From positions 12,477-76,476 of the forward strand of contig NJBL01000001.1 in the NCBI GenBank assembly GCA_005223145.1: DNA of 64,000 nt, read 5' to 3'. Both the position numbers and the translations under genes were made by a program. This document shows, one piece after another, positions 23,498 through 52,893 of this stretch (the stretch's first letter is position 1; each line of letters opens with the position of its first letter). This stretch comes from a bacterium (candidate division B38) B3_B38 (GTDB lineage: Bacteria > Acidobacteriota > B3-B38 > Guanabaribacteriales > B3-B38). Under the pieces are notes generated by a model. The model saw only the letters and a program-made list of their open reading frames with translations. It did no database searches and was not told where the DNA came from.

Positions 23498-24922
23498 TTA
23501 ATCTCCCCGGGCGAGCTCCTTTAAAGCTTTTATTAACTCCCTATCCTCTGAAGGTAGAACGGTGCGGAGGTCTATAACTACCTTCTCCTCCTGAATGCGA
23601 GCAATTACCGGAAGCGACCTCATCCTAAGCTTTCGACTAATAGTATCAGCGGTATATCGGGGAGAGTTTACTCCCATAAGCCGGGTGGGAAGCTCCACCA
23701 GGGGAACTGTCCCGCCACCCACCTTGGAAACGCCCTCCATAAGCTCTACATTTAAGGAAGAGCCCTTAACCCTACGAAGCTCCTCAATAATCGCCTCCGC
23801 CCTCCCTTGAAGCTCCGCCACCGATGTGGAGAGCATCTTCAATACCGGGATGGAGACCTCGGGTCGTCCCTTCAAGTACTCCACAAGGGTGGCTTCCAGA
23901 GCAAGATAGGTCAGCTTGCCCGCCCTGACTGCCCTCAAGAGGGGATTCACCTTGATTTTCTTGATTAACGCCCTATCACCCACTATGACCCCCGATTGGG
24001 GTCCTCCTAACAATTTATCCCCACTAAAAGTCACAATATTGGCCCCTCTTGCCAATATTTCCCCCACCGAGGGCTCATCTGGTATGCCGTAAGGGCTGAG
24101 GTCTACCATATTACCGCTGCCCATATCTTCCATCACCGGTATTCCATGCCTACGTCCCAGTGCCACCAGCTCCTCCATCCTCACCGATTCGGTGAAGCCG
24201 AGGATGCGGAAATTGCTCTGGTGTACTGCCAGCAGCAGGGCTGTATGGGGAGAGATTGCCTTCTCGTAATCCTGCAGCCTGGTCTTATTGGTGGTGCCCA
24301 CCTCTTTTAGTATCGCTCCACTCTTCTCCATGACCTCGGGTATCCTGAATGAGCCCCCTATCTCCACCAGCTCCCCCCGCGATACGATAACCTCTTTTCC
24401 CTCTGCCAGGGTGTTCAATACCAGCAATACGGCGGCAGCGTTGTTATTAGCAACCACACAAGATTTTCCTGGAAACAACCGAGAAATAAGACGCTCCACT
24501 GGAAGGTCCCGCCCCCCTCGCTTTCCCTCTTCCAGGAAAAACTCCAGATTCAGGTAGCGGCAAGAAAGCTCCTGCAATCGCTCCACCGCCGAGGGGCATA
24601 GCAGCGCCCTCCCCAGGTTGGTGTGGATGATGACCCCCGTAGCATTGATCACGCGACGAAGGGTGGGTGAGAGCTGCTCTTCCAGCCTCTGTCTCAGCTC
24701 ATCAATGAGACCCTCAACCCTCTTTTTCACCCCCTGGGGATCAGCTTTCCCCTGGGAAATCTCTTCCCTTATCACTGCCAGCAACTCCCTGATGTTATGC
24801 AGAATGAACTCCCGACTGTAATTGGATATGAGTCCCTTCACCTCATCCTTTTCCATAAGCTGGTCTACGGAGGGAAGGAGGCGATAGCTCCTCTCATGGT
24901 TTGCAGAGCTTGCATTTTTCAT
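23498..24922 (-). CDS. selA: L-seryl-tRNA(Sec) selenium transferase (selenocysteine synthase)
   Basis: PLP-lysine region FSGDKLLGGPQSGVIVG characteristic of SelA. 474 aa. Confidence 0.9.
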   Translation of the reverse strand: MKNASSANHERSYRLLPSVDQLMEKDEVKGLISNYSREFILHNIRELLAVIREEISQGKADPQGVKKRVEGLIDELRQRLEEQLSPTLRRVINATGVIIHTNLGRALLCPSAVERLQELSCRYLNLEFFLEEGKRGGRDLPVERLISRLFPGKSCVVANNNAAAVLLVLNTLAEGKEVIVSRGELVEIGGSFRIPEVMEKSGAILKEVGTTNKTRLQDYEKAISPHTALLLAVHQSNFRILGFTESVRMEELVALGRRHGIPVMEDMGSGNMVDLSPYGIPDEPSVGEILARGANIVTFSGDKLLGGPQSGVIVGDRALIKKIKVNPLLRAVRAGKLTYLALEATLVEYLKGRPEVSIPVLKMLSTSVAELQGRAEAIIEELRRVKGSSLNVELMEGVSKVGGGTVPLVELPTRLMGVNSPRYTADTISRKLRMRSLPVIARIQEEKVVIDLRTVLPSEDRELIKALKELARGD

Positions 24923-32253: not shown

Positions 32254-32282
32254 TTGACAAGTAGCGACTAAGATTATATATT
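32254..32282 (+). promoter_or_regulatory. sigma70-like promoter (TTGACA-N17-TATATT) for the Hsp20 gene
   Basis: -35 at 32254-32259 and -10 at 32277-32282. SD AAAGGAGGT at 32301-32309. Confidence 0.5.
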
Positions 32283-32317: not shown

Positions 32318-32764
32318 ATGGAACTCATCAGATGGAAGCCTTTCAGATAGTTCTTCACCCTTCCTGAGCGGCTCGACCGACTCTTCGACGAGAGCCTGGC
32401 TCGGATGGAGGAAAATCTCCCCTCCTGGTGGATGAGAAGGTGGCCGTTGACCGAAATCTACGAGACCGACCAGGAGATCATCCTCAAGGCAGAGCTGCCG
32501 GGCATTGACCCCAAAGATGTGAGCATTCATGTGGACGATGGGAGACTGCACATAGAGGGTGAGCGGAAGCATGAGAAGCGAGCGGATGAGGAGAACTATC
32601 ATCGTCGGGAGCTCGCCTACGGCAAGTTTTTCCGCTCCTCCACCCTACCAACCTCAGTCGACCAGGGGAAGATTAATGCCCGTTATGAAAAGGGTATCCT
32701 CCACATAACCCTCCCCAAGAAGGAGGAACACAAGGGGAAGAAGATAGAAATAAAGATCGAATAA
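32318..32764 (+). CDS. Hsp20/alpha-crystallin family small heat-shock protein, interrupted by an in-frame TAG at 32348-32350 (uninterrupted ORF from internal Met 32405)
   Basis: ATG at 32318, optimally spaced from the SD, encodes MELIRWKPFR, the conserved sHSP N-terminus. A TAG follows, then FFTLPERLDRLFDE... and the alpha-crystallin domain (ILKAELPGIDPKDVSIHVDDGRLHIEGERK). Confidence 0.7.
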
Positions 32765-32877: not shown

Positions 32878-32900
32878 CTTGACAAATGAGGATGCTTATG
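32878..32900 (+). promoter_or_regulatory. Candidate promoter of the hdr/metF cluster (TTGACA-N17-TAGATA)
   Basis: TTGACA at 32878-32883. A T8 tract at 32808-32815 after the hsp20 gene suggests termination upstream. Confidence 0.35.
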
Positions 32901-33069: not shown

Positions 33070-34317
33070 GTGGATAAAAGTGTCCTGGTTATCGGAGCTG
33101 GGGTGGCGGGTATTACAGCAGCCCTTGAGTTAGCGAACAGCGGAGTGCCGGTTGCCCTGGTAGAAAAGAGCCCGGGGCTGGGTGGTGCAGTTGCCTCATA
33201 TTGCTGCAAAGCCACCGACCAGTGCAACAAGTGCTCGGTATGCGTCGCCAATCAAAAGATGGAGGAGCTGCGGAGCGCGACCAATCTTTCACTCTTCACC
33301 AACTCCGACATTGAGAAGGTAGCCCGCAGTGATGGCGCGTTCCAAATCACGGTAACGCGCAAGCCCACCTATATTGATGACGATAAATGCGTTCGTTGTC
33401 AGCTGTGCGCTGAGAAGTGCCCCACCACGCCAAGCTCCATTTTCCTCCCTCCTCCTCACTCACCTTTGCAGAGCTATGTAATTGACCTTGATAGGTGTGT
33501 GCATTTTCAGGGCAAAAAGTGTAAGCTTTGCCAGGATGTATGCCCTACGGGAGCGATTGACCTTTCTCAAAAAGCAAGGGAGGAGAACCTTCAGGTGGGA
33601 GCCATCGTTGTGGCAACCGGCTTTTCTGCCTTTGACCCCACCAGGAAGAAGAGATATGGCTATGGAGCTCATCCCGATGTGATCACAGCCCTTGAATTGG
33701 AGGAGCAGCTGCGAATAGCAGGGAAGCTCAGCCGTCCCTCCAATGGCAGCCAGCCCAAACAGATAGCCTTTATCCAATGCTTCGGCAGCCGGGATGCTCA
33801 TGTGGGGAACAACTACTGTTCCCGAGTCTGCTGCACCTACACCATGAGGCTGGCAAACCTTCTCAAGTTCAAGCTCCCCGACTCAAGCATAACCATATTT
33901 TATATGGACATCCAGACTTTCGGAAAAGAGTTTGAGCAGTTTTATCAGCAGTGCCGCCAGAAAATTCAATTTATCCGTGATATACCCTCTCACATCCAGC
34001 AGGATGGGAATAACCAGCTCCTGATAACCTATCAGGACAGAAAAGAAGGCAAAGTGGTGCAAAGCAATTTCGACCTGGTGGTTCTTTCCGTGGGCCTTTG
34101 TCCGAGAGAAGATACCGAGAAGCTGGTTGAACTGTTGGGACTGCAGACTAACGAGCACGGCTTTTTAAAATCGCTAAGCCCCCTGCAAACCAACGAGACA
34201 GAGGCAGAGGGAATATTCCTTGCCGGCACCTGCCAGGGACCCCGGGACATAAGCGAATCTATCGCCCATTCTATCGGTGCGGCGGAGAAAGCCCTCGCCT
34301 ATCTGGGAGCCAAATAG
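33070..34317 (+). CDS. hdrA: Heterodisulfide reductase subunit A-like flavoprotein (complete HdrA-type FAD domain with inserted 2x[4Fe-4S] ferredoxin)
   Basis: GTG start. FAD Rossmann VLVIGAGVAGITAALELA. Ferredoxin CVRCQLCAEKCP and CKLCQDVCPTGAI. HdrA signature FIQCFGSRD...YCSRVCC. Ends in TAG at 34315-34317, in frame with the next ORF. Confidence 0.85.
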   Translation: MDKSVLVIGAGVAGITAALELANSGVPVALVEKSPGLGGAVASYCCKATDQCNKCSVCVANQKMEELRSATNLSLFTNSDIEKVARSDGAFQITVTRKPTYIDDDKCVRCQLCAEKCPTTPSSIFLPPPHSPLQSYVIDLDRCVHFQGKKCKLCQDVCPTGAIDLSQKAREENLQVGAIVVATGFSAFDPTRKKRYGYGAHPDVITALELEEQLRIAGKLSRPSNGSQPKQIAFIQCFGSRDAHVGNNYCSRVCCTYTMRLANLLKFKLPDSSITIFYMDIQTFGKEFEQFYQQCRQKIQFIRDIPSHIQQDGNNQLLITYQDRKEGKVVQSNFDLVVLSVGLCPREDTEKLVELLGLQTNEHGFLKSLSPLQTNETEAEGIFLAGTCQGPRDISESIAHSIGAAEKALAYLGAK

Positions 34318-35994
34318 ATGACAGAGGAGAAAAGAATAGGGATTATTCTCTGCAACTGCGGGGGAAGTCTTGAGGGTCATTTAGACCTCAAGAGACTGAA
34401 GGAATATAGCCAGGGTCTACCCCAGGTAGCTTATGTTGAGGAGCTGGGCACCTTTTGCCTTCCGGAGGATCCTCAGAAGATAGCCTCCATCATCAACAAG
34501 GAGAACCTCTCGGGCATCGTATTAGCCGGGTGTCCTCATCGGAATTCCGAAGCCATAGCTTCAGCCATAGCCCGGGAGTCTCACCTGAATCAGCATTTAA
34601 TCAACTTTGCTCCCATCAGGGAGCAGTGCGCCTGGGCCTATCCCCGGCGGCAAATAGCAACCGTAAAAGCCGAAAGGATGCTGGCATCAGCGGTAGCCCG
34701 AAACATCCGTCTTCATCCCCTGGAAGAGGAGGAGTTGTCCGCCGAGAAAAGCGTCCTTATCATAGGGGGAGGCATTGGGGGCATTCAGACCGCTCTGGAA
34801 CTCTCCCGCCTGGGATTTGGAGCCACCATACTGGAGAAGAAGTCCCACCTGGGAGGACTGATGAAAGGCACTGCCGCTCCCTTCGATTCCGTAACCCAAC
34901 CTCTGGAGCTAATTTCCTCCCGCATAGAGACCGCCACGCAAGACCCCAGGATAGATATCCTCACTTCCAGCGAACTGGTAAAGCTGGAGGGAGAGCCGGG
35001 CAGATTCCAGGCTCATATAAAACATAAAAGAAAAAAGAAGACTATAACAGCGGGCGCCGTAGTGGTGGCTGCCGGCTATCTGGTCAGTTTCCCCAAGGAG
35101 AGCTATGGATTCCCACTCTCTGAACGAGTCATCACCCAATCGCAGTTATCCGCCATACTGGCTGATGAGAAGAAGACCGAGGCTCTGCTGGGGGGAAATA
35201 AAGGAAAAGAGAGGAATCTCATCTTCATCCTCGGAATGGGCGGGGAGAGCACTCCCTTGACCACCGCCTTCACCCTCAAGGTATCATCGCTTATTAAAGA
35301 AAAGTATAAGTGGAACATCTTCATTATTTACAACAATATCAAAGTTGCCGGCGAGGGACTGGAGGCGCTCTTCCGTCAGTGCCGCAGTCAGGGTATTATC
35401 CTGTTAAGATACGATGAGCCCCGTCCCGGGTTCACCGTCAGCAAGGAGAAAATAGACATCCGCCTCAGCGGTCTGCTCACCTCATTGGAAAAAGAGGAGG
35501 AGGTAACTATCCCCGGTCACCTGATGGTGGTCGAAGAGCGGATAGAGCCCGAGCCCGACTTTGAAAACCTGGCTCAACTGTTGGGAATAAATGTTGACCC
35601 TCAGGGCTTTCTCCAGAAGGATAACCCTCATCTGTTCCCCATTGCCACTAATAAGGCGGGAGTCTTCGTGATGGGCTCTTGCCATCATCCCATGCTGCTG
35701 CCATTTATTATGGAAGAGGCGGCGGCAACAGCTTCCCATATCGCTGAGCAACTCTCTGAAGGGAAAATCAGGGTCTTCAAAGAGAGGGCAATGGTAGATA
35801 AGGGTAAGTGCACCCTTTGCCTGACCTGCATTCGTCTCTGCCCCCACCATGCCATCTCTTACGACCGAGCAGCGGTCATCTCGGAGGCTTTGTGCCAGGG
35901 CTGCGGAGTCTGCGCCAGTGAGTGTCCGGCAGAGGCGATAGAGATTAGAAACTATACCACCCATCAGCTTATGGCTGAGATAGGAGTTAGCTGA
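34318..35994 (+). CDS. hdrA: Second HdrA-type unit (Cys-rich inserted domain, second FAD site, C-terminal 2x[4Fe-4S])
   Basis: ILCNCGGSLEGHLDLKRLKEY, VLIIGGGIGGIQTALELSRLG, CTLCLTCIRLCPHH...CQGCGVCASECPAEAI. ATG directly follows the upstream TAG. Confidence 0.85.
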   Translation: MTEEKRIGIILCNCGGSLEGHLDLKRLKEYSQGLPQVAYVEELGTFCLPEDPQKIASIINKENLSGIVLAGCPHRNSEAIASAIARESHLNQHLINFAPIREQCAWAYPRRQIATVKAERMLASAVARNIRLHPLEEEELSAEKSVLIIGGGIGGIQTALELSRLGFGATILEKKSHLGGLMKGTAAPFDSVTQPLELISSRIETATQDPRIDILTSSELVKLEGEPGRFQAHIKHKRKKKTITAGAVVVAAGYLVSFPKESYGFPLSERVITQSQLSAILADEKKTEALLGGNKGKERNLIFILGMGGESTPLTTAFTLKVSSLIKEKYKWNIFIIYNNIKVAGEGLEALFRQCRSQGIILLRYDEPRPGFTVSKEKIDIRLSGLLTSLEKEEEVTIPGHLMVVEERIEPEPDFENLAQLLGINVDPQGFLQKDNPHLFPIATNKAGVFVMGSCHHPMLLPFIMEEAAATASHIAEQLSEGKIRVFKERAMVDKGKCTLCLTCIRLCPHHAISYDRAAVISEALCQGCGVCASECPAEAIEIRNYTTHQLMAEIGVS

Positions 35995-36020
35995 AAGGCT
36001 TCAAAAAAGGGGGATTTAAA

Positions 36021-37421
36021 TTGCCAAAATATGATGTTGCCATAATAGGAGGGGGACCTGGAGGTTATGTGGCTGCCATAAGGGGAGCCCAGCTGGGCGG
36101 GAGAATCTGCGTGATAGAGAAAGGAGAGCTGGGGGGAACCTGCCTTAACTGGGGCTGTATCCCCACCAAAGCGCTCATCGCCTCCACCTCAGTGCTGAGA
36201 TACATCAACGAGGCAAAGCGCTACGGGATAAACATCAAGGGCGATGTAGAAGCAGACTTTCCAGCCATTATGGAGAGAAAAAACAAGGTGGTAGCCACCC
36301 TCGTTAATGGTATAAAGACCGTATTCAAAAGCTATGATATTGACCTCATAAAGGGCACCGGCTCATTCCTCGCCCCCCATAGGCTTAAGGTAACCCTCCC
36401 CGATGGCTCTACTCAGGAGATAGAGGCGGAAAAGGTGCTCATCGCCACCGGTTCTGTCCCCGCTGTCATTCCAGCCTTCCCCATCGATGGGAAGAAGATC
36501 ATCTCCAGCGACGAAGCCGTCAACCTGAAAGAAGTCCCTAAAAGCATTCTGATTATCGGCGCCGGAGCTATCGGCTGCGAGTTTGCTTTCATTCTGCACG
36601 AACTGGGCTGTCAGGTTACCATGGTAGAGATGCTCGCTCATGCGGTCCCTCTGGAGGACATAGACACCTCCAAGACCATGGACCGAGAGCTAAAGAAGCG
36701 CAAGATCAAGCTCTACTGCAGCCAGAAGGTTCAGAAGGTCAAGGAAGACGCTGATGGGATGATGTTAGCCACCCTGGAAAGCGGCGAGGAGATAAAAGCC
36801 GAAAAGGTGCTGGTCTCCATAGGGAGAGTCTTTAATGTGAAGGGGCTTGACCTCGAAAACATCAAAGTAGCCCAGGGAAGGAGGGGTGACATTCTGGTGA
36901 ACGACCGCCTGGAGACCAATGTCCCCGGAGTATACGCCATTGGAGATGTGATTGGGGGAATTATGTTAGCTCATGTCGCCTCAAAAGAGGGGATAGTAGC
37001 CGTCGAGAACGCTCTGGGCGGCAATAAAAGGATAGACTACCGGGTGGTGCCCGCGACCATCTTCAGCAATCCTGAGATTGGCAGCGTCGGTCTGAAAGAG
37101 AGAGAAGCCAGGAAGCAGGGATACGACATCCGCATAGGGATGTTTCCCTACCGGGCTCTGGGGAAATCTCATGCCATGGGTGAGATCGTGGGACAGGCGA
37201 AAATCATCGCCGATGCCAAAACCGACAAGATTCTGGGGGTCCACATCGTGGGGGCGCATGCCACAGACCTTGTCCACGAGGCTGCTATAGCCATCCAGCA
37301 CGGATTAACCGCTCAGCAGTTGGGTGATACCATACACTCCCATCCTACTTTATCTGAAGCTCTTATGGAAGCCGCCCACGATGTCCACCAGATAGCTATA
37401 GATATGCCCAAAAAAAACTAA
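36021..37421 (+). CDS. lpdA: Dihydrolipoyl dehydrogenase (E3 / L-protein)
   Basis: FAD site DVAIIGGGPGGYVAA. Redox-active disulfide GGTCLNWGCIPTK. NAD site IIGAGAIGCEFA. C-terminal HSHPTLSEA interface motif. 466 aa. Confidence 0.9.
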   Translation: MPKYDVAIIGGGPGGYVAAIRGAQLGGRICVIEKGELGGTCLNWGCIPTKALIASTSVLRYINEAKRYGINIKGDVEADFPAIMERKNKVVATLVNGIKTVFKSYDIDLIKGTGSFLAPHRLKVTLPDGSTQEIEAEKVLIATGSVPAVIPAFPIDGKKIISSDEAVNLKEVPKSILIIGAGAIGCEFAFILHELGCQVTMVEMLAHAVPLEDIDTSKTMDRELKKRKIKLYCSQKVQKVKEDADGMMLATLESGEEIKAEKVLVSIGRVFNVKGLDLENIKVAQGRRGDILVNDRLETNVPGVYAIGDVIGGIMLAHVASKEGIVAVENALGGNKRIDYRVVPATIFSNPEIGSVGLKEREARKQGYDIRIGMFPYRALGKSHAMGEIVGQAKIIADAKTDKILGVHIVGAHATDLVHEAAIAIQHGLTAQQLGDTIHSHPTLSEALMEAAHDVHQIAIDMPKKN

Positions 37422-37483
37422 AAAAGGGAAATTTTTAAATGGTCTCAGATATGTTAAACTTAATCGCAAAGGAGGCCCAATAA

Positions 37484-37858
37484 ATGGGAGACGAGGGTTA
37501 CAAGTTTCACAAAGAGCATTTATGGTTTAAGGCGGAAGGCGATACCGCGTTGGTTGGTATCACCGATTACGCCCAGCAGCAGTTGGGAGATATTGTATAT
37601 GTTGACCTGCCCGATGTAGGGGACGAGATTAAAAAAGACGAGTCCCTGGGGGAGGTCGAGTCGGCTAAAAACCTCTCCGACCTTATTGCGCCGGTAAGCG
37701 GAGAGGTAATCGAAATCAACAACGACGCCGTTGACGACCCCTCAATCATCAACAAAGACCCTATGGGTGAGGGATGGCTTCTCAAAGTAAAGCTGTCCGA
37801 CCCATCAGAGCTGGACGACCTCCTCTCTGAAGAAGATTACAAGAAATTGGCAAAATAG
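37484..37858 (+). CDS. gcvH: Glycine-cleavage H-protein-type lipoyl carrier protein
   Basis: VGITDYAQQQLGDIVYVDLPDVG and lipoyl-lysine motif GEVESAKNLSDLIAPVSGEV. 124 aa. Confidence 0.9.
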   Translation: MGDEGYKFHKEHLWFKAEGDTALVGITDYAQQQLGDIVYVDLPDVGDEIKKDESLGEVESAKNLSDLIAPVSGEVIEINNDAVDDPSIINKDPMGEGWLLKVKLSDPSELDDLLSEEDYKKLAK

Positions 37859-37912
37859 CCTGAGAGAAGTCCATCTGTCTGGGGAAAGAGGGGTAGTGTG
37901 AGGTTGTAAGGC

Positions 37913-38359
37913 ATGAGCGACCAGGAGAGCCTCGGGAAGGAATCCGACGATTTTTGTCCACGAATAGTAGCCTTCTGTTGCCAGCGTTCAGCCTACCGTG
38001 CAGCAGATTTAGCAGGGGAGATGCACCTTGGTTTTCCCGAAGGGCTTGATATTATTCAGGTCCCTTGCACCGGCAGGGTCGACCTCGTCTATCTGCTGCG
38101 GTCACTGGAAGAGGGCGCCGATGGGGTGCTCATCCTTGCCTGTTTTGAGGACAACTGCAAATACATCTCAGGCAACATACGCGCCCGCAGACGGGTGGAG
38201 TACGCCCGAAAACTCCTCAAAGAGCTCGGACTGGAGGAGAAGAGGGTAGCCATCGGGAACCTCGCCTCTAACACGCCCCATCGGTTTGTAGAGCTCACCC
38301 AAGCAATGAGGGAAGAAATTAAAAAATTAGGACCAAGCCCCTTGCGGGCTAAGCAATAA
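37913..38359 (+). CDS. mvhD: Methyl-viologen-reducing hydrogenase delta subunit-like protein (MvhD/FlxD), Cys version
   Basis: Conserved CCQRSAY, VPCTG, and ACFEDNCKY motifs. 148 aa. Confidence 0.85.
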   Translation: MSDQESLGKESDDFCPRIVAFCCQRSAYRAADLAGEMHLGFPEGLDIIQVPCTGRVDLVYLLRSLEEGADGVLILACFEDNCKYISGNIRARRRVEYARKLLKELGLEEKRVAIGNLASNTPHRFVELTQAMREEIKKLGPSPLRAKQ

Positions 38360-38381
38360 AGATTAAGGACTTATCTGAGAG

Positions 38382-41300
38382 ATGGGCAACGAACAGAAAA
38401 AAGTTGGCGCAGTGCTGGTAGTGGGAGGTGGAGTCGGCGGTATGCAAGCCGCCCTCGACCTGGCGGACTCCGGCTTCAAAGTTTACCTGGTAGAGAAAAA
38501 GAGTTACATCGGCGGAGTAATGGCTCAGCTCGACAAGACCTTCCCCACTAACGACTGCGCGATGTGCATAGTAGCCCCCAGGCTGGTGGAGACAGGAAGG
38601 CATCTCAACATAGAGACCATCACCAATGCTGAGATAGATAAGGTCGAAGGAAAACCGGGAGACTTCAAAGTCACCGTCCGCAAGAAAGCCCGATACATTG
38701 ACCTTGACATATGCACCGGCTGCGGAGAATGCGCCAAAGTCTGCCCTGTGGAGATAGGGAGTGAGTTCGACCTGGGAATGGTCAACCGTCATGCCGCCTA
38801 TCGGGGCTACCCTCAGGCGGTCCCCAGCGCCTATACCATTGAGAAGACGGGGATAGGACCCTGCACCCTTACCTGCCCTGCAGGGGTAAACGCTCACGGG
38901 TATGTGGCGCTCATAGCTGAGGGAAAATTCGCCGAAGCGCTGACCTTGGAGAGAAGACGGAACCCATTCGCAGGTATCTGCGGGCGAGTCTGTCACCACC
39001 CCTGCGAAATAGCCTGTCGCCGGGGCGAATATGACCAGCCCATTTCCATCTGCCACCTCAAACGTTTCCTGGCAGATTGGGAGCTGGAGCACGGACCCCT
39101 CCCCCTCCCCACCATAGAAAAGCCCAAAAAGCAAAAAGTGGCTATTATCGGCTCCGGTCCGGCAGGTCTGGCAGCCGCCCACGACCTCGCCCTGATGGGA
39201 TACAAGGTCACCATCTTCGAAGCCCTGCCAGTAGCCGGAGGAATGCTGCGAACAGGCATCCCTGCCTACAGGCTGCCCCGCGATGTGCTCGACTACGAAA
39301 TAAAAAGAATTACCGACCTGGGGGTGAAGCTCAAGCTCAATACCCCCATCGGCAAGAAATTAACTATTGATGCCCTCAAGAAGAAGGGTTATAAAGCCAT
39401 CTTCATCGCCATAGGCGCCCATAAAGGACTGAAGCTCCGCATCCCCGGAGAAGAAGATTATGAGGGCTTTATGGACTCTGTCAGCTTCCTCCGCCAGGTC
39501 AACCTCGGCGAAAAAGTGAGCCCGGTAAAGAGGGTGCTTATCATCGGCGGCGGGAATGCAGCCATAGATTCTGCCCGCGCCTCTCTGAGGATAGGCTGTG
39601 AGGAGGTATTCATCGTCTATCGGCGGTCGCGTAAGGAGATGCCCGCCAACGAGCCAGAGATTCAAGCGGCAGAGTTCGAAGGGGTAAAAATCCACTACCT
39701 GGCTGCTCCGGTGAGTATCCTCGGCTCCAATGGCAAGGTTACCGGCATGGAGTGCATCCGCATGAGGCTGGGGGAGCCTGATGCCAGTGGTCGCCGAAGA
39801 CCTATCCCCATAGAGGGGACCGAGTTCGTAATAGAAGCCGACCGCATCATCCCTGCCATCAGTCAGGAACCCGACATTTCCTTCCTTTCCGCTGACCATA
39901 AGTTCAATATATCCCGCTGGAATTCCTTTGTGGTAAATGAGGTCAGCTACCAGACCAATATCCCGGGAATCTTTTCCGCTGGGGATGCGGTGACCGGACC
40001 CAACACGGTCATAGATGCCATTGCTGCCGGTAAAGAGGTAGCCATCTCCATTGACCGGTATATTCAGGGGAAAGACCTCCTGGCTGACAGACCGGAAAAG
40101 AAGCCCTGCGAGGGAATGCCAGGACAAAAGGCAGGACCACCCAAACCCCGGCAGGAGATGCCTGCCCTAACTCGTGAAAAAAGGGAAAAGAACTTCAAGG
40201 AGGTAGAACTCGGCTTCACCGAGGAGATGGCTGTTGAAGAAGCCAGGCGATGCCTTGATTGCGGCGTATGCTCCGAATGCCTGGAGTGTGTTAAAGCCTG
40301 CGAAGCCAAAGCCATCGCCCACGAGATGTCTGATGAGCAGTTAGAGGAACTGTCGGTCGGAGCCATAATACTGGCTCCCGGCTACCAACTCTTCCCCGCT
40401 GAGCAAGCTCAGGAGTTCGGCTACGGCAGGTTCCCCAATGTGGTCAGTAGTCTGGAGTTTGAACGCATCCTCTCAGCCAGCGGTCCTTATATGGGGAAGG
40501 TGTTGCGACCCTCCGACCAGGATAAGCCGAAAAAAATTGCCTTCATCCAGTGTGTCGGCTCACGCGATGTGGAGAGAAACTACTGTTCGTCTGTGTGCTG
40601 TATGTACGCCATTAAGGAGGCGGTTATTGCCCGGGAGCATGATCCTGATATCGAGTGTCACATTTTCTATATCGACCTGCGAGCCTTCGGCAAAGGCTTT
40701 GATGAATATTACGAGCGAGCCAAGGAGAGCGGCATCAAGTTTACCCGCTGCCGCCCATCTTCGGTGAAAGAGATACCCCACAGCAAAGACCTCGTGGTCC
40801 GCTATCAGACTGAGGACGGAAGGTTTATCGACGAGGAGTTCAATCTGGTGGTGCTCTCCTGTGGTCTCCAGCCGCCCGAGGGTGTGGAAGAGTTAGCCTC
40901 CACATTGGGGCTGAAACTCGACCAGCATAAGTTCTGCCAGACAGAGAAATTTACCCCCATTGAGACCTCCCAGCCCGGTGTTTTCGTCTGCGGACCCTTC
41001 TCCGAACCCAAGGATATACCAGAAACGGTGACCGAAGCCAGCGGCACCGCCGCTTTGGCTATGGGGATGTTAGCGCCTGCTCGAGGGGAGCTGATCAAGG
41101 AGAAGGAATATCCTCCTGAAAAGGATGTAACCGGGCAGCCACCCCGCATAGGGGTATTTATATGCCATTGCGGCAAGAACATAGGGGGCGTCATTGAAGT
41201 GAAGAAGCTGGTAGAATATGCCAGCCATCTCCCCGATGTGGCTTATGCCACCGATATGATATACACCTGCTCCCAGGATGCCCAGGAGATTATGAAACAG

Positions 41301-42809
41301 ACCATCGAAGAGCACAAGCTGAATCGAGTGGTGGTCGCCTCCTGTACCCCCCGAACCCACGAGCCCCTCTTCCAGGAGACCATCCGCCAGGCGGGGTTGA
41401 ATCCCTATCTGTTTTCCATGGCCAATATTCGAGACCAGTGCACCTGGGTTCACATGCACGAGGCTGACAGCGCCCTGGAAAAGAGCAAGGTGCTGGTTCG
41501 TATGGCTGCTGCCCGAGCCCGCTACATCCAGCCCCTCCACAAGGAAACCATCGGTTTAACCAAGGAAGTCCTGGTCATAGGCGGTGGGGCAGCTGGAATG
41601 GTAGCCGCCCTCAATATGGCGGATGAAGGATACAATGTCCATCTGATAGAGAAAGAAGAGGTGCTGGGAGGCAACCTGAGGCATATTTACTACATCCTTG
41701 AGGGGATAGACCCTCAGAAATATCTGGCAGAGCTGATAGATAAGGTCACTTCAAACCCAAAGATTACCGTCTACCTGGGAAGTGCTCTTACCGGGTTTTC
41801 GGGATTTATCGGCAACTTCCAGGCTGCCATAAGCACCAACGGCGGACCGCCGGAAAATATAAACTGCGGAGTAGCGATAGTAACCACCGGAGGCACTGTC
41901 TACCAGGGAGAGGAGTATCTTTACGGAAAGGATGACAGAGTCATTAACCAGCAGAACCTGGAGGAGACCATCTATCACCATCCGGAGCGGATAAGAGAGC
42001 TGGGACAGGTGGTGATGATCCAATGTGTGGGTTCGCGAGAGCCCGACCATCCCTCCTGCAGCCGCATCTGCTGCGGAGAAGCGATAAAGAACGCATTGAA
42101 AATCAAAGAGATAAGTCCATCGACCGATGTTTTCATCCTTTATAGAGACATCAGAGCCTACGGCTTCCGGGAGAAATATTACCGGCAAGCCAGAGAGCAG
42201 GGGGTCTATTTTATCCGCTATGAGGCTGAGGAAAAGCCCGAAGTAACCAACGAGGGAGCGCTGAAAGTCAGAGTTAAGGATTATATCTTCGGAGGAACAA
42301 TGGAGCTGAGACCCGACCTGCTGGTACTGAGCACGGGAGTCAGAGCCCATCCCGACAGCGAGGAGCTGGCTACCATGCTTAAGGTACCCTTGACTCAGGA
42401 GAAGTTCTTCCTGGAAGCTCATATGAAGCTCCGACCGGTTGACTTCTCCGCTGACGGCATCTTTCTGGCGGGGCTGGCTCATTATCCGAAATATATTGAC
42501 GAATCGATTGCCCAGGCACGGGCGGCGGTATCGCGGGCAAGCAGAGTCATCTGGCAGGATACCTTGCAGGTGGGAGGAGCTATATCCCGGGTGGACGAGA
42601 ACCTGTGTGCGGCCTGCCTCACCTGCATCAGGGTCTGCCCTTATGATGCCCCCGCCTTCCGTGATGGAGTAGCTTATATTGAGATAGCCAAATGTCAGGG
42701 ATGTGGAATATGTGCCGATGCCTGTCCTGCAAAAGCAATACAGCTATTGCATTCCACTGACCAACAGATTATAGCTATGACCGACGCTTTGGCTGAGGCA
42801 GCTTCCTGA
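38382..42809 (+). CDS. hdrL: HdrL-type giant fusion: N-terminal HdrA FAD domain + ferredoxin + GltD/NfnB-like NAD(P)H:FAD module + second HdrA unit with C-terminal 2x[4Fe-4S]
   Basis: VLVVGGGVGGMQAALDLA, NDCAMCIVAPR, CTGCGECAKVCPV. GltD-like FAGICGRVCHHPCEIAC + VAIIGSGPAGLAAAHDLALMGYKVTIFE...GGMLRTGIPAYRLP + VLIIGGGNAAID. Second unit FIQCVGSRD...YCSSVCC, GVFICHCGKNIGG, VLVIGGGAAGMVAALNMA, CAACLTCIRVCP...CQGCGICADACPAKAI. Confidence 0.85.
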   Translation: MGNEQKKVGAVLVVGGGVGGMQAALDLADSGFKVYLVEKKSYIGGVMAQLDKTFPTNDCAMCIVAPRLVETGRHLNIETITNAEIDKVEGKPGDFKVTVRKKARYIDLDICTGCGECAKVCPVEIGSEFDLGMVNRHAAYRGYPQAVPSAYTIEKTGIGPCTLTCPAGVNAHGYVALIAEGKFAEALTLERRRNPFAGICGRVCHHPCEIACRRGEYDQPISICHLKRFLADWELEHGPLPLPTIEKPKKQKVAIIGSGPAGLAAAHDLALMGYKVTIFEALPVAGGMLRTGIPAYRLPRDVLDYEIKRITDLGVKLKLNTPIGKKLTIDALKKKGYKAIFIAIGAHKGLKLRIPGEEDYEGFMDSVSFLRQVNLGEKVSPVKRVLIIGGGNAAIDSARASLRIGCEEVFIVYRRSRKEMPANEPEIQAAEFEGVKIHYLAAPVSILGSNGKVTGMECIRMRLGEPDASGRRRPIPIEGTEFVIEADRIIPAISQEPDISFLSADHKFNISRWNSFVVNEVSYQTNIPGIFSAGDAVTGPNTVIDAIAAGKEVAISIDRYIQGKDLLADRPEKKPCEGMPGQKAGPPKPRQEMPALTREKREKNFKEVELGFTEEMAVEEARRCLDCGVCSECLECVKACEAKAIAHEMSDEQLEELSVGAIILAPGYQLFPAEQAQEFGYGRFPNVVSSLEFERILSASGPYMGKVLRPSDQDKPKKIAFIQCVGSRDVERNYCSSVCCMYAIKEAVIAREHDPDIECHIFYIDLRAFGKGFDEYYERAKESGIKFTRCRPSSVKEIPHSKDLVVRYQTEDGRFIDEEFNLVVLSCGLQPPEGVEELASTLGLKLDQHKFCQTEKFTPIETSQPGVFVCGPFSEPKDIPETVTEASGTAALAMGMLAPARGELIKEKEYPPEKDVTGQPPRIGVFICHCGKNIGGVIEVKKLVEYASHLPDVAYATDMIYTCSQDAQEIMKQTIEEHKLNRVVVASCTPRTHEPLFQETIRQAGLNPYLFSMANIRDQCTWVHMHEADSALEKSKVLVRMAAARARYIQPLHKETIGLTKEVLVIGGGAAGMVAALNMADEGYNVHLIEKEEVLGGNLRHIYYILEGIDPQKYLAELIDKVTSNPKITVYLGSALTGFSGFIGNFQAAISTNGGPPENINCGVAIVTTGGTVYQGEEYLYGKDDRVINQQNLEETIYHHPERIRELGQVVMIQCVGSREPDHPSCSRICCGEAIKNALKIKEISPSTDVFILYRDIRAYGFREKYYRQAREQGVYFIRYEAEEKPEVTNEGALKVRVKDYIFGGTMELRPDLLVLSTGVRAHPDSEELATMLKVPLTQEKFFLEAHMKLRPVDFSADGIFLAGLAHYPKYIDESIAQARAAVSRASRVIWQDTLQVGGAISRVDENLCAACLTCIRVCPYDAPAFRDGVAYIEIAKCQGCGICADACPAKAIQLLHSTDQQIIAMTDALAEAAS

Positions 42810-42813
42810 AGAA

Positions 42814-43257
42814 ATGGGGGAATCAGGATTGAAGGAGTTTGAACCAGAAATTCTGGCTTTTGCCTGCCACTATTGTGCCTATGCAGCAGCCGACCTGGCA
42901 GGCTCTATGAGGCTGCAATACCCCACCAATGTCAAAATAATAAAGCTTCCTTGTTCGGGGAAAATTGACATTATCTATATTTTAAAAGCATTGGAAGCGG
43001 GAGCCGATGGCATACTGGTGGCCGGGTGACTGGAAGGAACCTGCCATTACCTGGAAGGTAATTCGAGGGCAAAGCAGAGAGTGGAGCATGCCAAAAAGCT
43101 CCTTGAAGAGATTGGTATGGAAGGGGAGCGGGTGGAGATGGTCTTCATCTCAGCATCGGAGGGAAATAGATGGGCGGAGACCATAAGCCAGATGAGAGAG
43201 AAACTGAAAGAGCTGGGACCCAATCCCCTTAAACAGAACCGAGGGAGTGGAAAATAA
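42814..43257 (+). CDS. mvhD: MvhD-like selenoprotein: in-frame TGA (Sec) at 43027-43029 replaces the first Cys of the CxxxxCxY motif
   Basis: Upstream part AFACHYCAYAAADLAG...KLPCSGKID...ILVAG, then TGA, then LEGTCHYLEGN...RVEHAKKLL, in frame to TAA at 43255-43257. Aligns residue-for-residue with the Cys paralog (ILACFEDNCKY vs ILVAG-U-LEGTCHY). selA is in the window. A hairpin lies 14 nt downstream. Confidence 0.75.
43043..43070 (+). ncRNA. Candidate bacterial SECIS stem-loop within the mvhD mRNA
   Basis: ATTACC-TGGAA-GGTAAT perfect 6-bp stem with G-containing apical loop (43046-43062), flanked by GCC/GGC, 14 nt 3' of the UGA. Confidence 0.45.
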
Positions 43258-43925
43258 TGATAACCGCTGTAAGGAAGCCACTCAACGAAATTATAGAAAT
43301 GGTAGCCCCCTGCGAGAAGATATTGGTAACTGGCTGTGGCACCTGCGTTACTATAGATTACTCTGGCGGGGCTAAAGAGGCAGCCATCCTGGCCTCGCAG
43401 CTGCGTATTGCGCGGCGGCTGGGAGGGAAAAAGCTGGAAACCCTGGAGCAGACGGTGGAGCGACAGTGCGAATGGGAGTTTGTAAAAGAGTTTACCGACC
43501 ATGCGGCTGAGTGCCAGGCGATAATAAGCATGGCTTGTGGAGCGGGAATACAGACGGTAGCCGCTGCCTTCCCTGATAAGCCGGTCTTCCCCGGAGTCAA
43601 CACCCGATTTATCGGAATGCCCCAGAAACAGGGTGTCTGGGAGGAGAGATGCATCTGCTGTGGCAACTGCGTTCTCCATCTTACCGGTGGGCTTTGCCCA
43701 TTTGCCCGTTGCGCCAAGACCCTTCTCAACGGACCCTGCGAGGGGTCGCAGGACGGCAAGTGTGAGGTGAACCGAGAGCTTGACTGCGTCTGGCAGCAGA
43801 TATACGACAGCTTAAAAGAGAGAGGGAGGCTGGCTGACCTGCAGAAGATATTCCCTCTGCGCGACTGGTCTACCGGTGAGGATGGAGGCTACCGGATAAC
43901 CGTCAGGGAGGATATGATGCTATGA
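43257..43925 (+). CDS. metV: MetV: zinc-ribbon/Cys-rich partner of methylene-THF reductase (MTHFR C-terminal-domain-like protein)
   Basis: CEKILVTGCGTC ... CICCGNCVLHLTGGLCPFARC ... NGPCEGSQDGKC pattern. ATG overlaps the stop of the Sec-mvhD (TAATG). Confidence 0.8.
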   Translation: MITAVRKPLNEIIEMVAPCEKILVTGCGTCVTIDYSGGAKEAAILASQLRIARRLGGKKLETLEQTVERQCEWEFVKEFTDHAAECQAIISMACGAGIQTVAAAFPDKPVFPGVNTRFIGMPQKQGVWEERCICCGNCVLHLTGGLCPFARCAKTLLNGPCEGSQDGKCEVNRELDCVWQQIYDSLKERGRLADLQKIFPLRDWSTGEDGGYRITVREDMML

Positions 43926-44806
43926 ACGCCAACAGCGGTCTGAAAAAGCTATTAGCCAAGGAGGAGTTTGTAGTCATTGCCGGCATCGGTATCCCCCGGG
44001 GGGCTGATTTCAAACCACTGGAAGAGCGATACAAGCTATTAGAGAAGAAGGTCAATGCCTTTTATATACCCGATAACCCGGGAGCAAATGTCCACCTACT
44101 GGGTCTGGCAGCAGCGGTCCACCTTGAGAAGCTGGGCGGGGAGACGGTGCTGGAGCTGAACTGCCGGGATAGAAATCGCATCGCCATCCAGAGCTCTATT
44201 CTGGGAGCGGCTGCTCTGGGTATACCCAACCTTCTCTTCTCTACCGGCGACCATCAGACCCTGGGCAATTTCAGAGGGGCTAAGAGGGTCTACGATGTGG
44301 ACCTGACTCAGGCCATCCAGGTAGCCAGGGGGATGAGGGATGAGAAAAAATTCTCCAATGGTGAGGAGGTAGCTCAACCGCCCTCCATCTTCATCGGTGC
44401 CGAGGCAAACCCCTTTGCCGACCCCTTTGAATTCAGAGCAGCCCTTATGGCGAAAAAGGTCGAAGCAGGTGCGGACTTTGTTCAGATCCGAGCGGTCTTC
44501 GACCTGGAGCGCTTCGGGAAATGGATAAAGCTGGTGCGGCAGCAAGAACCCCTTCAGAAAATCCCCATCCTGGCAGGGATAATACCTCTGGTCTCGGTGG
44601 AGCAAGCCAAATCCCTTCAGGAAGCACCGGGGATGATAGTGCCCGACTCCATCATCCAGCGGCTGGAAGCGAGCGGCAAACCCGAGGATGAGGGCATCAA
44701 GATAGCAAAGGAGATTATCGCCCAGGTGAAGAAAACGGAAGGGGTGAGAGGGATTGTGCTCCACGCCAGCGGGATGGAAAGCCTGGTGCCCGACCTCATC
44801 AAATAG
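43922..44806 (+). CDS. metF: 5,10-methylenetetrahydrofolate reductase
   Basis: MTHFR TIM-barrel fold (FVVIAGIGIPRG, LELNCRDRNRIAIQSSILGAAALGIPNLLFSTGD, GADFVQI). Overlaps the metV stop (ATGA). Confidence 0.85.
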   Translation: MNANSGLKKLLAKEEFVVIAGIGIPRGADFKPLEERYKLLEKKVNAFYIPDNPGANVHLLGLAAAVHLEKLGGETVLELNCRDRNRIAIQSSILGAAALGIPNLLFSTGDHQTLGNFRGAKRVYDVDLTQAIQVARGMRDEKKFSNGEEVAQPPSIFIGAEANPFADPFEFRAALMAKKVEAGADFVQIRAVFDLERFGKWIKLVRQQEPLQKIPILAGIIPLVSVEQAKSLQEAPGMIVPDSIIQRLEASGKPEDEGIKIAKEIIAQVKKTEGVRGIVLHASGMESLVPDLIK

Positions 44807-44871
44807 GATGGTTATTCTGAATAGCTTAATGCACTTCTTCTTTGAATGGAGGATTCAAGGGAGCTGAGACA

Positions 44872-45435
44872 ATGGATAAGGTGTTAACGCCGGAAACCCT
44901 GAAATCGGATTTTATAGACAAAATCGCCCAGGAAAGCGACCAGAATGTGTACCTCTGCTATCAGTGCCGCAAGTGTGCCGCCGGGTGCCCGGTCACCTAT
45001 GAAACTGACTATACCCCCTTCCAGATAATTCAGGGGGTGATATATGGCCAACGGGAGCTGGTGCTCAACAGCAAGATGATATGGCTATGCACCACATGTG
45101 AGACCTGCACCACCCGCTGCCCCCAGGAGATAGATATCGCCCGGGTGATGGATGCCGCCCGAATTATCGCCCAGCGAGAGGGAATAAAGGCTAAATATCC
45201 GGTGGTGCCCGCCTTTTTCCAAACCTCATTACAAAATATCAGTTGGTTCGGGAGGCTGTACGAGGTGGGACTGATAATGATGCTCAAGCTGCGGACAAAG
45301 GATTTCACTAAAGATATGGGCCTGGGGATAAGGATGTTCTTAAATAGAAAGCTCAAGCTCACTCCCAAGCCCACCGCATTGCGAGAAGTAAGGCGGATTT
45401 TCAAGAAAATCAAAGAGATAGAGGAGACCAGTTGA
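44872..45435 (+). CDS. hdrC: Heterodisulfide reductase subunit C-like (2x[4Fe-4S])
   Basis: CYQCRKCAAGCP and CTTCETCTTRCP. Start placed at ATG 44872 (AAGGGAG 9 nt upstream). The ORF track begins at 44842 without an RBS. Confidence 0.85.
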   Translation: MDKVLTPETLKSDFIDKIAQESDQNVYLCYQCRKCAAGCPVTYETDYTPFQIIQGVIYGQRELVLNSKMIWLCTTCETCTTRCPQEIDIARVMDAARIIAQREGIKAKYPVVPAFFQTSLQNISWFGRLYEVGLIMMLKLRTKDFTKDMGLGIRMFLNRKLKLTPKPTALREVRRIFKKIKEIEETS

Positions 45436-46337
45436 TGAGATATGCCTACTACCCGGGATGCTCTCTCCACTCCACTGCCTTTGAATATGACCTCTCCATG
45501 AGAGCTGTGCTGGAAAAGCTGGGGATAGAGTATGAGGAGCTGCGGGGATGGATTTGCTGCGGCACGTCCCCGGCTCACTGCAGCTCGAAGCTTCTGGGGG
45601 TAACCCTTCCAATAAAGAACCTGGCTATCGCCGAGGAGGACGGCTTCCGGCAGATGATAGTCCCCTGCGCTTCGTGTTTCTCCCGGTTGAAGATCGCCCT
45701 GCACGAGACAAGCGAGAATCCCGAGCTAAAGGAGAAAGTGGAGCAGGTCCTCAACTATGCCTATCAGGGTAGTGTTGAGGTTCGCCATCCTCTGGATATC
45801 CTCTATAACGAGGTGGGACTGGAACGGATAAGGGAATCGGTCAGAGAAAACCTCTCACGGATGAAGGTAGTGTGCTATTACGGCTGCCTCTTAACCCGTC
45901 CCCCCAAGGCGGTTAATTTCGACCAATGTGAGTATCCTATGACCATGGACAACTTGCTAAAAGGCTGCGGAATAGAGGTGCTCGACTGGTCTTACAAAAC
46001 CGATTGCTGCGGTGCGGGGCAGGCTTTGGCACTGACCAATATCGTAGTCAAGCTGAGCCGAGACATCCTGGACAACGCCAAGCAGGTGGGCGCCGAGGCA
46101 GTGGCAGTAGCGTGTCCGCTGTGTCACAGCAACCTTGATGCCCGACAGAGTGAGATAGAGCAGACTTATAAACTGAGTCTCAATCTGCCCATCTTCTATT
46201 TCAGCCAGCTCATCGCCCTGGCTATGGGAGTGGACAAGAATAAAATAGGATTGCAAGGGCATCTGGTAAATCCCTTTCCCCTGCTCAAAAAAATAAAATC
46301 CCCTTCATCCCCTGCCAGGCCGCCGTCTCGGGGATAA
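45432..46337 (+). CDS. hdrB: Heterodisulfide reductase subunit B-like (two CCG Cys-rich domains)
   Basis: YYPGCSLHS, WICCGTSP, CASC, YYGCLLTRPP, TDCCGAG, CPLC. Confidence 0.9.
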   Translation: MMRYAYYPGCSLHSTAFEYDLSMRAVLEKLGIEYEELRGWICCGTSPAHCSSKLLGVTLPIKNLAIAEEDGFRQMIVPCASCFSRLKIALHETSENPELKEKVEQVLNYAYQGSVEVRHPLDILYNEVGLERIRESVRENLSRMKVVCYYGCLLTRPPKAVNFDQCEYPMTMDNLLKGCGIEVLDWSYKTDCCGAGQALALTNIVVKLSRDILDNAKQVGAEAVAVACPLCHSNLDARQSEIEQTYKLSLNLPIFYFSQLIALAMGVDKNKIGLQGHLVNPFPLLKKIKSPSSPARPPSRG

Positions 46338-52308: not shown

Positions 52309-52893
52309 ATGGAACCTTTCGTAATCAAGGACGATAAGGTAAATGTGGCGGAGATTATGGAGCACATCCGCCAGCAAATTGAGAAGAAAAAGAGGGTATT
52401 GTATACAGAAGAGGAACTGGAAGAACTGGCAAAAACCAAGCTGAGCTCCTACATTCACTCCTCTGAAGTGAAAAGCTCCTTTGCCGAGGAGCTTCAAGCC
52501 CTGAAAGCCGATTGGAACATCTCCATATCCCTGGAGTCCCTCTACAAATCCCACCCCAGCCTTTATGGGAGGATGATCTACCGAATCAGGAAGCTTCTCC
52601 GCCCCGTAACAAGGTTCTTTATGAACATTGATGTCCTTTTTCCTGAATTTCATAAGCAAACAAAGCTCAATCTCAACTTCGCCCATCTACTCCATAATCT
52701 CATTCTGGAACTTACCAAGCTGAGACTGGATCACGACGAATTGAAGAGCCGTCTCGAGGGCCTCAACCAGCGTTTGGAACATCAGACCAAAAGGGAAAGA
52801 ACCCTGGAAAAGATGGTGGTTTTCAAAAAGACCACCTCCCCAAGTAAAGGGACCAAAAGGGGAAAAAGCTCTCCTGACAAGGACAAAAGGTGA
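52309..52893 (+). CDS. Hypothetical coiled-coil protein, first gene of the glycosyltransferase operon
   Basis: ORF with SD AGGAGG upstream. No motif. Confidence 0.4.
   Translation: MEPFVIKDDKVNVAEIMEHIRQQIEKKKRVLYTEEELEELAKTKLSSYIHSSEVKSSFAEELQALKADWNISISLESLYKSHPSLYGRMIYRIRKLLRPVTRFFMNIDVLFPEFHKQTKLNLNFAHLLHNLILELTKLRLDHDELKSRLEGLNQRLEHQTKRERTLEKMVVFKKTTSPSKGTKRGKSSPDKDKR

Follow-up and report, generated by a model that had tools for sequence, protein, structure and literature searches.

Eleven co-oriented genes, in the order hdrA, hdrA', lpd, gcvH, mvhD, hdrL, mvhD(Sec), metV, metF, hdrC and hdrB, occupy positions 33070-46337 (+) of a 64,000-nucleotide stretch of DNA from B3_B38, an uncultured, Aminicenantes-like sediment bacterium of candidate division B38 (contig NJBL01000001.1, assembly GCA_005223145.1), which is referred to at its full length as the window. 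The cluster combines Hdr and MvhD subunits and the methylene-tetrahydrofolate (methylene-THF) reductase MetVF with a dihydrolipoyl dehydrogenase (DLDH; here Lpd) and a GcvH-type lipoyl carrier. It thereby nominates a protein-bound lipoyl group as a candidate thiol partner of bacterial HdrB, without proving it. The intergenic distances are, in order, 0, 26, 62, 54, 22 and 4 nt, two overlaps, 35 nt and a further overlap. Pfam and NCBIfam profile matches were used to assign families to the eleven open reading frames (ORFs), and all assignments hold; an earlier sequence-only reading of this DNA was correct in the order, coordinates, strand and spacing (0-62 nt) of the genes and in their identities, including those of Lpd and GcvH. 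The gene products are listed here, with lengths in amino acids (aa).

33070-34317, +: HdrA-like protein, 415 aa; thioredoxin-reductase-like FAD domain with an inserted 2x[4Fe-4S] ferredoxin domain, matching positions 139-559 of NCBIfam HdrA2.
34318-35994, +: HdrA'-like protein, 558 aa; N-terminal domain, FAD domain and C-terminal ferredoxin domain; its start abuts the hdrA stop.
36021-37421, +: Lpd, 466 aa; dihydrolipoyl dehydrogenase equivalog TIGR01350, 539 bits against a cutoff of 408.8.
37484-37858, +: GcvH-type lipoyl carrier, 124 aa; GcvH equivalog TIGR00527, 149 bits against a cutoff of 115.9.
37913-38359, +: MvhD1, [2Fe-2S] adaptor, Cys form; PF02662 FlpD, E = 1e-41.
38382-42809, +: HdrL, 1475 aa, HdrA-GltD-HdrA fusion; Pfam Fer4_20, Pyr_redox_2 x4 and Fer4.
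42814-43259, +: MvhD2, selenoprotein; FlpD, E = 2e-51 with U read as C; motif VAG-U-LEGTCHY.
43257-43925, +: MetV, Zn/FeS subunit of MetVF; PF12225 DUF5981, E = 2e-35; overlaps the mvhD2 stop and the metF start.
43922-44806, +: MetF, flavin-containing catalytic subunit; PF02219 MTHFR, E = 9e-22; MTHFR part of PRK08645, 173 bits.
44842-45435, +: HdrC, 2x[4Fe-4S]; TIGR03290, E = 3e-19; Fer4_8 and Fer4_17.
45432-46337, +: HdrB, two CCG domains with the non-cubane [4Fe-4S] disulfide site; PF02754 CCG x2.

By sequence alignment, HdrA and HdrA' are complementary halves of HdrA. The first covers residues 151-569 of the HdrA structures 8RVU/5ODC (E = 1e-99), both Cys motifs of the inserted ferredoxin domain included, and compared with methanogen HdrA it is without the N-terminal and C-terminal domains; HdrA' aligns to residues 10-245 and 305-639, and the inserted ferredoxin domain is absent. 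Lpd, which is identical to TKJ36111.1 of B3_B38, carries the CLNWGC redox disulfide, the His-Glu dyad in HSHPTLSE and an NAD-type VEM motif. GcvH is identical to TKJ36112.1 from the same organism, and its K62 (codon 37667-37669), in the motif VESAK, lines up with the lipoyl Lys in other members of the GcvH family. HdrL consists of an HdrA-like N-terminus, a GltD-type NAD(P)H/FAD/FeS module (Fer4_20 and Pyr_redox_2 at residues 155-650, with HdrA-like regions on either side), two HdrA-like FAD regions and a C-terminal ferredoxin domain; it matches NCBIfam HdrA2 with 1004 bits in 4 stretches and PRK12771 with 573 bits. Both CX..CCG..CXXC motifs of HdrB are intact, and the protein matches solved HdrB over its full length (5ODC_B/9SFI_C, E = 1e-47 to 1e-49).

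Judged by its predicted products, the locus is made up of two blocks, an extra block hdrA-hdrA'-[lpd-gcvH]-mvhD and a block hdrL-mvhD(Sec)-metV-metF-hdrC-hdrB. The latter is, on the same grounds, a complete Moorella/Desulfobacterium-type set, that of an Hdr-type, NAD(P)H-linked methylene-THF reductase (or methyl-THF dehydrogenase). The gene for Lpd sits 6 kb upstream of metV, between hdrA' and gcvH, and has no direct contact with metF or folD; the HdrA of its block has the ferredoxin-interacting inserted domain. Only a single hdrCB pair is present in the locus. No GCV_T or GDC-P match was found in any ORF of at least 150 aa in the window, in agreement with the statement of the sequence-only reading that gcvT and gcvP are lacking.

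The eleven-gene order was also found on at least seven further contigs from several metagenomes (L001-L003, L007/L091, L008, L090, L092 and L093), and the arrangement is therefore not an assembly artefact. GcvH and Lpd on these contigs are 84-93% and 88-92% identical, respectively, to those of the window, and the nearest relatives are labelled Candidatus Aminicenantes or Acidobacteriota. The full embedded lpd-gcvH pair is limited to this one narrow Aminicenantes-like clade. Species-representative genomes were scanned for HdrL, and the 80 loci recovered were compared with all window proteins by tblastn. Of these, 78 lie outside the Aminicenantes clade, in Desulfobacterota, Anaerolineae, Bacillota, Latescibacteria, Planctomycetota and SAR324, and 46 of the 78 have metV next to hdrL-mvhD. 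None contained lpd, and none contained a GcvH of at least 40% identity. As the pair is absent from 78 other hdrL(-metVF) loci, the core enzyme does not need it. Two Anaerolineae loci (L017 and L032) have the order hdrA-hdrA'-mvhD-metV-metF-hdrC-hdrL-mvhD, a near-equal list of parts without lpd-gcvH, with no hdrB match recorded there. GcvH-like matches near hdrL in Desulfobacterales were considered as a wider GcvH-Hdr link and rejected, the proteins having no lipoyl lysine. These matches are two tandem proteins of 300-400 aa with a C-terminal GcvH-like domain (L046:4007-5927, L053:20785-22835 and L054:3615-5600), adjoining a sigma54 histidine-kinase/response-regulator pair 4-7 kb from hdrL-mvhD.

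The nearest Lpd sequences beyond the window's own clade are about 62% identical to it and come from a second lineage represented by four contigs (L087, L170, L171 and L172; for example L170:5586-21395, GCA_964645975.1). Here the order is hdrC-hdrB-hdrA(417 aa)-hdrA'(558 aa)-lpd-mvhD-hdrC-hdrB-hdrL-mvhD-hdrCB fusion-mvhD-hdrA(about 1000 aa), so that lpd is again found between hdrA' and mvhD, the slot that it has in the window, with gaps of 12-25 nt. Identities to the window proteins are 61-62% for Lpd, 49% for HdrA, 42% for HdrA' and 57% for MvhD (MvhD1 against the product of the mvhD that follows lpd, L087/L170). The Lpd of this lineage is a bona fide DLDH (TIGR01350, 556 bits, motifs kept), and the 8-10 kb around its gene are free of metVF, folD and gcvH. 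The part of this very large supercluster that was covered encodes four HdrA-type proteins, three MvhD, one Lpd and three HdrB-type units, of which one is an HdrCB fusion and the others belong to hdrCB pairs; a search with its last HdrA-like protein, truncated at 1003 aa, gave 61% as the best identity. The HdrL homologue of this lineage (L087:11273-14002; L172:9400-12129) was called as pieces of 55 aa and about 800 aa, which suggests an in-frame stop, possibly a selenocysteine (Sec) codon, near the N-terminus; the HdrL of the window is uninterrupted.

The gene neighbourhoods of related Lpd sequences were compared in the same way. Ten loci with the nearest Lpd relatives, representing about five distinct arrangements, contained neither gcvT/gcvP nor 2-oxoacid dehydrogenase E1/E2 genes. 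Among the near relatives other than the second lineage, one locus has gcvH-lpd alone (L088) and another lpd alone (L174). On contigs named as Nitrospirae and on related metagenome contigs, rnfCDGEAB is directly followed by gcvH-lpd (L089:968-8796, L175:136-7891, L176 and L177); these Lpd sequences share 78% identity with each other and 55-59% with that of the window. At L145:6553-11374, a PucR-type regulator is followed by a GlcD-like FAD-linked oxidase (479 aa), an Fe-S/2xCCG protein (389 aa), a gcvH with the lipoyl lysine and lpd; the CCG protein, gcvH and lpd occur in the same order in L105, and the L104 contig ends just upstream of gcvH. The gene content suggests a 2-hydroxyacid dehydrogenase that would pass electrons to lipoyl-GcvH/NAD+. 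At L173:4029-10389, gcvH-lpd (4-nt overlap) is divergent from genes for an ArsR-type regulator, two DsrE proteins, DsrH, a Pyr_redox_2 protein and a DrsE_2 protein, a set that resembles the accessory sulfur-transferase sets of sHdr-LbpA systems.

More distant Lpd sequences (43-51% identity) were found in 39 loci, of which 22 are classical clostridial folD-metV-metF-lpdA clusters. The best GcvH match outside the clade from a named genome is that of Thermosediminibacter oceani (57%), in the cluster folD-metV-metF-lpdA-cooC-acsDCEB-gcvH (L005). In a rough neighbour-joining (NJ) tree, the window clade, the second Hdr-linked clade and the clade of gcvH-lpd pairs group apart from the clostridial metF-linked LpdA sequences.

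The second MvhD was examined for its predicted Sec residue. The mvhD2 gene has an in-frame TGA at 43027-43029, and among the homologous mvhD genes of the fetched loci this column is Cys 81 times and a stop 31 times. Given this column and the presence of selA (Sec synthase) at 23498-24922 (-) within the window, the assignment made in the sequence-only reading is sound, and by this comparative evidence the TGA is a genuine Sec codon. A hairpin predicted 3' of the TGA was not significant by energy (z = -1.0 against shuffles), and no Sec insertion element (SECIS) match to Rfam was obtained in the window.

Upstream, the cluster is bordered by hsp20 (32405-32764, +), 305 nt before hdrA, and by divergent ABC-2 transporter genes; downstream lies a tricorn protease gene with a promoter-like site of its own. 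The best sigma70-like site of the region (32254-32282) precedes hsp20, and a TTGACA box lies at 32879-32884, about 185 nt upstream of hdrA. No terminator-like sites were found at the internal junctions of the eleven-gene unit, which gives weak support for co-transcription; the site counts of this promoter/terminator scan were no higher than in shuffled sequence. Elsewhere in the window, folD is found at 8035-8961 (+), 25 kb from the cluster, and the presence of selA and folD fits a seleno-MvhD and one-carbon (C1)/THF metabolism. The window contains no fhs, acs, fdh or cooC, no LplA or LipS-like gene was found in it, and DsrE and TusA are likewise absent from it. Rfam and tRNA scans of the window returned no matches. 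Two ORFs, at 2571-3716 (+; 381 aa) and 52309-52893 (+; 194 aa), have no Pfam match at the thresholds used.

The coupling of a lipoyl carrier to MetVF had been called undescribed in the sequence-only reading, and this was not borne out. Oppinger et al. 2021 (Oppinger, Kremp, Muller) modelled a bifurcating MetVF whose electron donor is reduced GcvH, recharged by LpdA at the expense of NADH, and judged this model highly unlikely (PMC8760232). In the same year Yi et al. tested purified DLDH and MetFV of Clostridium ljungdahlii with NADH, lipoamide, ferredoxin and methylene-THF and observed no activity; DLDH could not serve as an electron-transfer subunit for this MetFV, and they concluded that lpdA encodes the glycine-cleavage L protein, co-located because of a shared substrate (PMC8515935). 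Kremp et al. 2022 suggested that proteinogenic dithiols act at HdrB, and found free dihydrolipoate, lipoate and glutathione to be without effect on the Hdr-type enzyme of Sporomusa ovata (PMC9430772). Tepidanaerobacter acetatoxydans has gcvH2 next to gcvPA/PB and, as an additional copy, gcvH1-lpdA1 at metF (PMC13564433). In sHdr-LbpA sulfur oxidisers, the GcvH-like lipoyl protein LbpA is essential and electrons are proposed to pass from Hdr to the lipoyl group and on via DLDH to NAD+; a DLDH gene is also linked to hdr clusters in sulfur-oxidising archaea (PMC6067878). HdrL and a seleno-MvhD were first named in Desulfobacterium autotrophicum (PMC2702500), and the HdrA of Moorella, with 1487 aa, has an inserted GltD NAD(P)H module (PMC9430772); the window HdrL matches both in architecture. 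A glycine cleavage system has been reported to be encoded in one Aminicenantes metagenome-assembled genome (MAG; PMC4897734). No description of lpd/gcvH inside an hdr/metVF cluster was found in the open-access literature, and nothing on this cluster was found in that on Aminicenantes. The general lipoyl-MetVF idea is therefore already published, and what appears to be new is the placement of lpd-gcvH inside an Hdr-MetVF operon.

We tentatively propose, from gene content and arrangement, that lipoylated GcvH and Lpd may form the NAD(H)-linked redox partner of the Hdr module, a reading to which we give somewhat less than an even chance. As a protein dithiol/disulfide shuttle, Lpd and lipoylated GcvH would trade electrons with the Hdr module; the CCG site of HdrB is the most plausible point of contact for lipoyl-GcvH, whose disulfide would take the place of the CoM-S-S-CoB heterodisulfide, acting catalytically and being recycled. 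Equilibration of lipoyl-GcvH with NAD+/NADH would fall to Lpd, and HdrA/HdrL would couple lipoyl/NAD(H) to ferredoxin and, via MetVF, to the methylene-/methyl-THF couple. Candidate directions are from methyl-THF and reduced ferredoxin to lipoyl/NAD+, or from dihydrolipoyl to methylene-THF and ferredoxin; the pair may additionally serve glycine cleavage. NADH has a potential of about -320 mV and ferredoxin one of about -450 mV. The reported potentials are about -290 mV for lipoamide (PMC6067878) and -200 mV for methylene-THF (PMC9430772). On these values a lipoyl disulfide could accept electrons in a confurcation of methyl-THF and reduced ferredoxin, and dihydrolipoyl could donate toward methylene-THF and ferredoxin with a driving force of roughly zero.

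Some support for the redox-partner reading comes, at the level of gene order, from the same-slot lpd in the second Hdr supercluster, from the CCG-gcvH-lpd operon and from the lack of gcvT/gcvP around this lineage of Lpd and GcvH, and the sHdr-LbpA systems offer a precedent, by analogy, for electron flow between a lipoyl group and Hdr. The tight packing of the eleven genes, their conservation on the further contigs and the status of the metF-linked pair of T. acetatoxydans as an additional copy also speak for it. A number of observations weigh against it. The pair is missing from all 78 of the other hdrL loci, and the window HdrB is orthologous to the hdrB product encoded beside hdrL in Desulfobacterota loci (42-49% identity). 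Within the window hdrB lies 7 kb from gcvH and does not adjoin it, and in the second lineage gcvH is absent from the 8-10 kb around lpd. A site for NAD(P)H is already available in HdrL. GcvH and Lpd pass canonical equivalog models, and there is no dedicated lipoate ligase, unlike in sHdr-LbpA systems. The two Hdr-linked Lpd clades are sisters in the NJ tree with a bootstrap of only 50%, and these two and the clade of gcvH-lpd pairs group together with 69%. The null results with free lipoamide or lipoate in two acetogens (PMC8515935, PMC9430772) count against a lipoyl partner, and on standard potentials the lipoyl disulfide, at about -290 mV, would lie too low to accept electrons on the high-potential branch of a bifurcation driven by NAD(P)H. 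The proposal of lipoyl-GcvH and Lpd as Hdr partners made in the sequence-only reading is thus partly supported, by the recurrence of lpd and by the company that the nearest pairs keep, and is weakened by the narrow distribution, the canonical character of both proteins and the energetics.

The simpler explanation already offered with the sequence, that Lpd and GcvH are the L and H proteins of glycine cleavage (or of reductive glycine synthesis), co-transcribed by way of a shared methylene-THF pool and exchanging no electrons with Hdr, remains about as likely. Both proteins lie above the canonical thresholds with all catalytic motifs kept, folD is present in the window, metF-lpdA(-gcvH) adjacency recurs in clostridial Wood-Ljungdahl clusters such as that of T. 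oceani and the 22 loci described above, and the Aminicenantes MAG cited above is reported to have the glycine cleavage system. It is, moreover, the published explanation for acetogens, in which Yi et al. favoured it (PMC8515935) and Oppinger et al. judged coupling unlikely (PMC8760232). The pair is, however, placed between hdrA' and mvhD rather than by metF or folD, the window Lpd falls outside the clostridial metF-linked LpdA clade, and gcvT/gcvP are absent both from the 64 kb and from the ten fetched loci with its nearest relatives. In the second lineage, lpd belongs to an Hdr cluster around which C1 genes are absent for 8-10 kb, and the negative biochemistry was obtained with free lipoamide and, for C. 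ljungdahlii, with an enzyme that has no HdrB.

If Lpd were instead a direct NADH-input flavoprotein docking on MvhD/HdrA (compare MvhAG, FlxA and RnfC2), no lipoyl substrate would be involved and GcvH would be a passenger in the Aminicenantes clade. This would account for an lpd that lies immediately upstream of mvhD, or one gene from it, in both lineages, MvhD being the subunit that normally links a donor module to HdrA, and for the second lineage having lpd with no gcvH nearby. We nevertheless regard it as improbable: Lpd is devoid of Fe-S clusters and retains both the disulfide and the His-Glu dyad that are specific to lipoamide, an NAD(P)H site is already provided by HdrL, and the C. ljungdahlii DLDH failed in such a role with MetFV (PMC8515935). 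Neutral hitch-hiking of a mobile gcvH-lpd cassette in a highly expressed operon, with no functional tie to its neighbours, appears very improbable. The full insertion is confined to one narrow clade (84-94% identity) and gcvH-lpd pairs are found in many unrelated neighbourhoods, as such a cassette would be, but lpd occupies the same slot in a lineage that is only 62% identical, the intergenic gaps are short and there are no internal terminator-like sites.

A broader form of the redox-partner reading is that lipoyl-GcvH and Lpd carry electrons between NAD(H) and the CCG-domain (HdrB-like) enzymes of anaerobes in general, as a protein-dithiol shuttle, lipoyl-GcvH being the missing bacterial 'heterodisulfide'; this we consider rather unlikely. 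Its users would be Hdr/HdrL-MvhD systems (the Hdr-type methylene-THF reductase among them) and GlcD/CCG 2-hydroxyacid dehydrogenases, and perhaps also pathways linked to Rnf. Lipoate, known from the 2-oxoacid and acetoin dehydrogenases, from glycine cleavage and from sHdr, would thereby gain another role. The role of HdrB/HdrC and the second substrate of the presumed bifurcation matter for the bioenergetics of acetogens, sulfate reducers and syntrophs. The present locus, its second-lineage relative and the CCG-gcvH-lpd operon give a genomic reason to consider protein-bound lipoyl-GcvH, where earlier work used free lipoate. If the redox-partner reading is true, bacterial Hdr systems would have a recyclable disulfide and a new link of NAD(H), ferredoxin and C1 metabolism.

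Among known systems, HdrCBA-MvhD-MetVF, proposed for Moorella thermoacetica and studied in S. ovata, shares six parts with the window (MetV, MetF, MvhD, HdrC, a two-CCG HdrB and an HdrA of about 1480 aa with a GltD module), all in one cluster. The sequence features that mark an Hdr-type MetVF are found here, namely metV/metF adjoining hdr/mvhD, a GltD-containing HdrA and a two-CCG HdrB with HdrC. The window differs in that the order is permuted (hdrL-mvhD-metV-metF-hdrC-hdrB), MvhD is a selenoprotein, a hdrA-hdrA'-mvhD block with the embedded lpd-gcvH is added and acs genes are absent from the window. D. autotrophicum and other Desulfobacterota share the HdrA/GltD fusion followed by a (seleno)MvhD, often with metV-metF next; unlike the window, none of the 78 hdrL loci outside the Aminicenantes clade has lpd or a GcvH with the lipoyl lysine. 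Clostridial Wood-Ljungdahl clusters (C. ljungdahlii, A. woodii, T. oceani and T. acetatoxydans) likewise encode DLDH and GcvH with metV-metF and have no gcvT/gcvP in the cluster. In these, lpdA directly follows metF and the reductase has two or three subunits without HdrB, whereas the pair in the window lies inside the hdr genes with an Lpd of a different clade in the rough tree; the contiguity of folD-metV-metF-lpdA with acs/cooC is not seen in the window. Of the glycine cleavage system, the window has H, with its lipoyl lysine, and L, a DLDH, and lacks T and P within its 64 kb.

The sHdr-LbpA systems of Hyphomicrobium, Aquifex and Sulfolobales share with the window the genetic tie of an Hdr-like complex to a GcvH-like lipoyl protein, and the archaeal clusters hold a DLDH gene. 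Their hdrC1B1A-hyp-hdrC2B2 layout, DsrE/TusA sulfur transferases and dedicated lipoate ligase/LipS are not found in the window, which in addition has MvhD and MetVF. The window GcvH is canonical and not of the LbpA type, and the HdrA units are of the methanogen type, with an N-terminal domain and with inserted and C-terminal ferredoxin domains, unlike the short sHdrA (6TJR, 349 aa), which is without these. From the methanogen complex HdrABC-MvhAGD the window differs in an HdrA that is split into two proteins and in having no hydrogenase and no CoM/CoB metabolism; its HdrA, HdrB and HdrC can be aligned end to end with the solved subunits of that complex, and it has both CCG motifs and the inserted ferredoxin domain in common with it.

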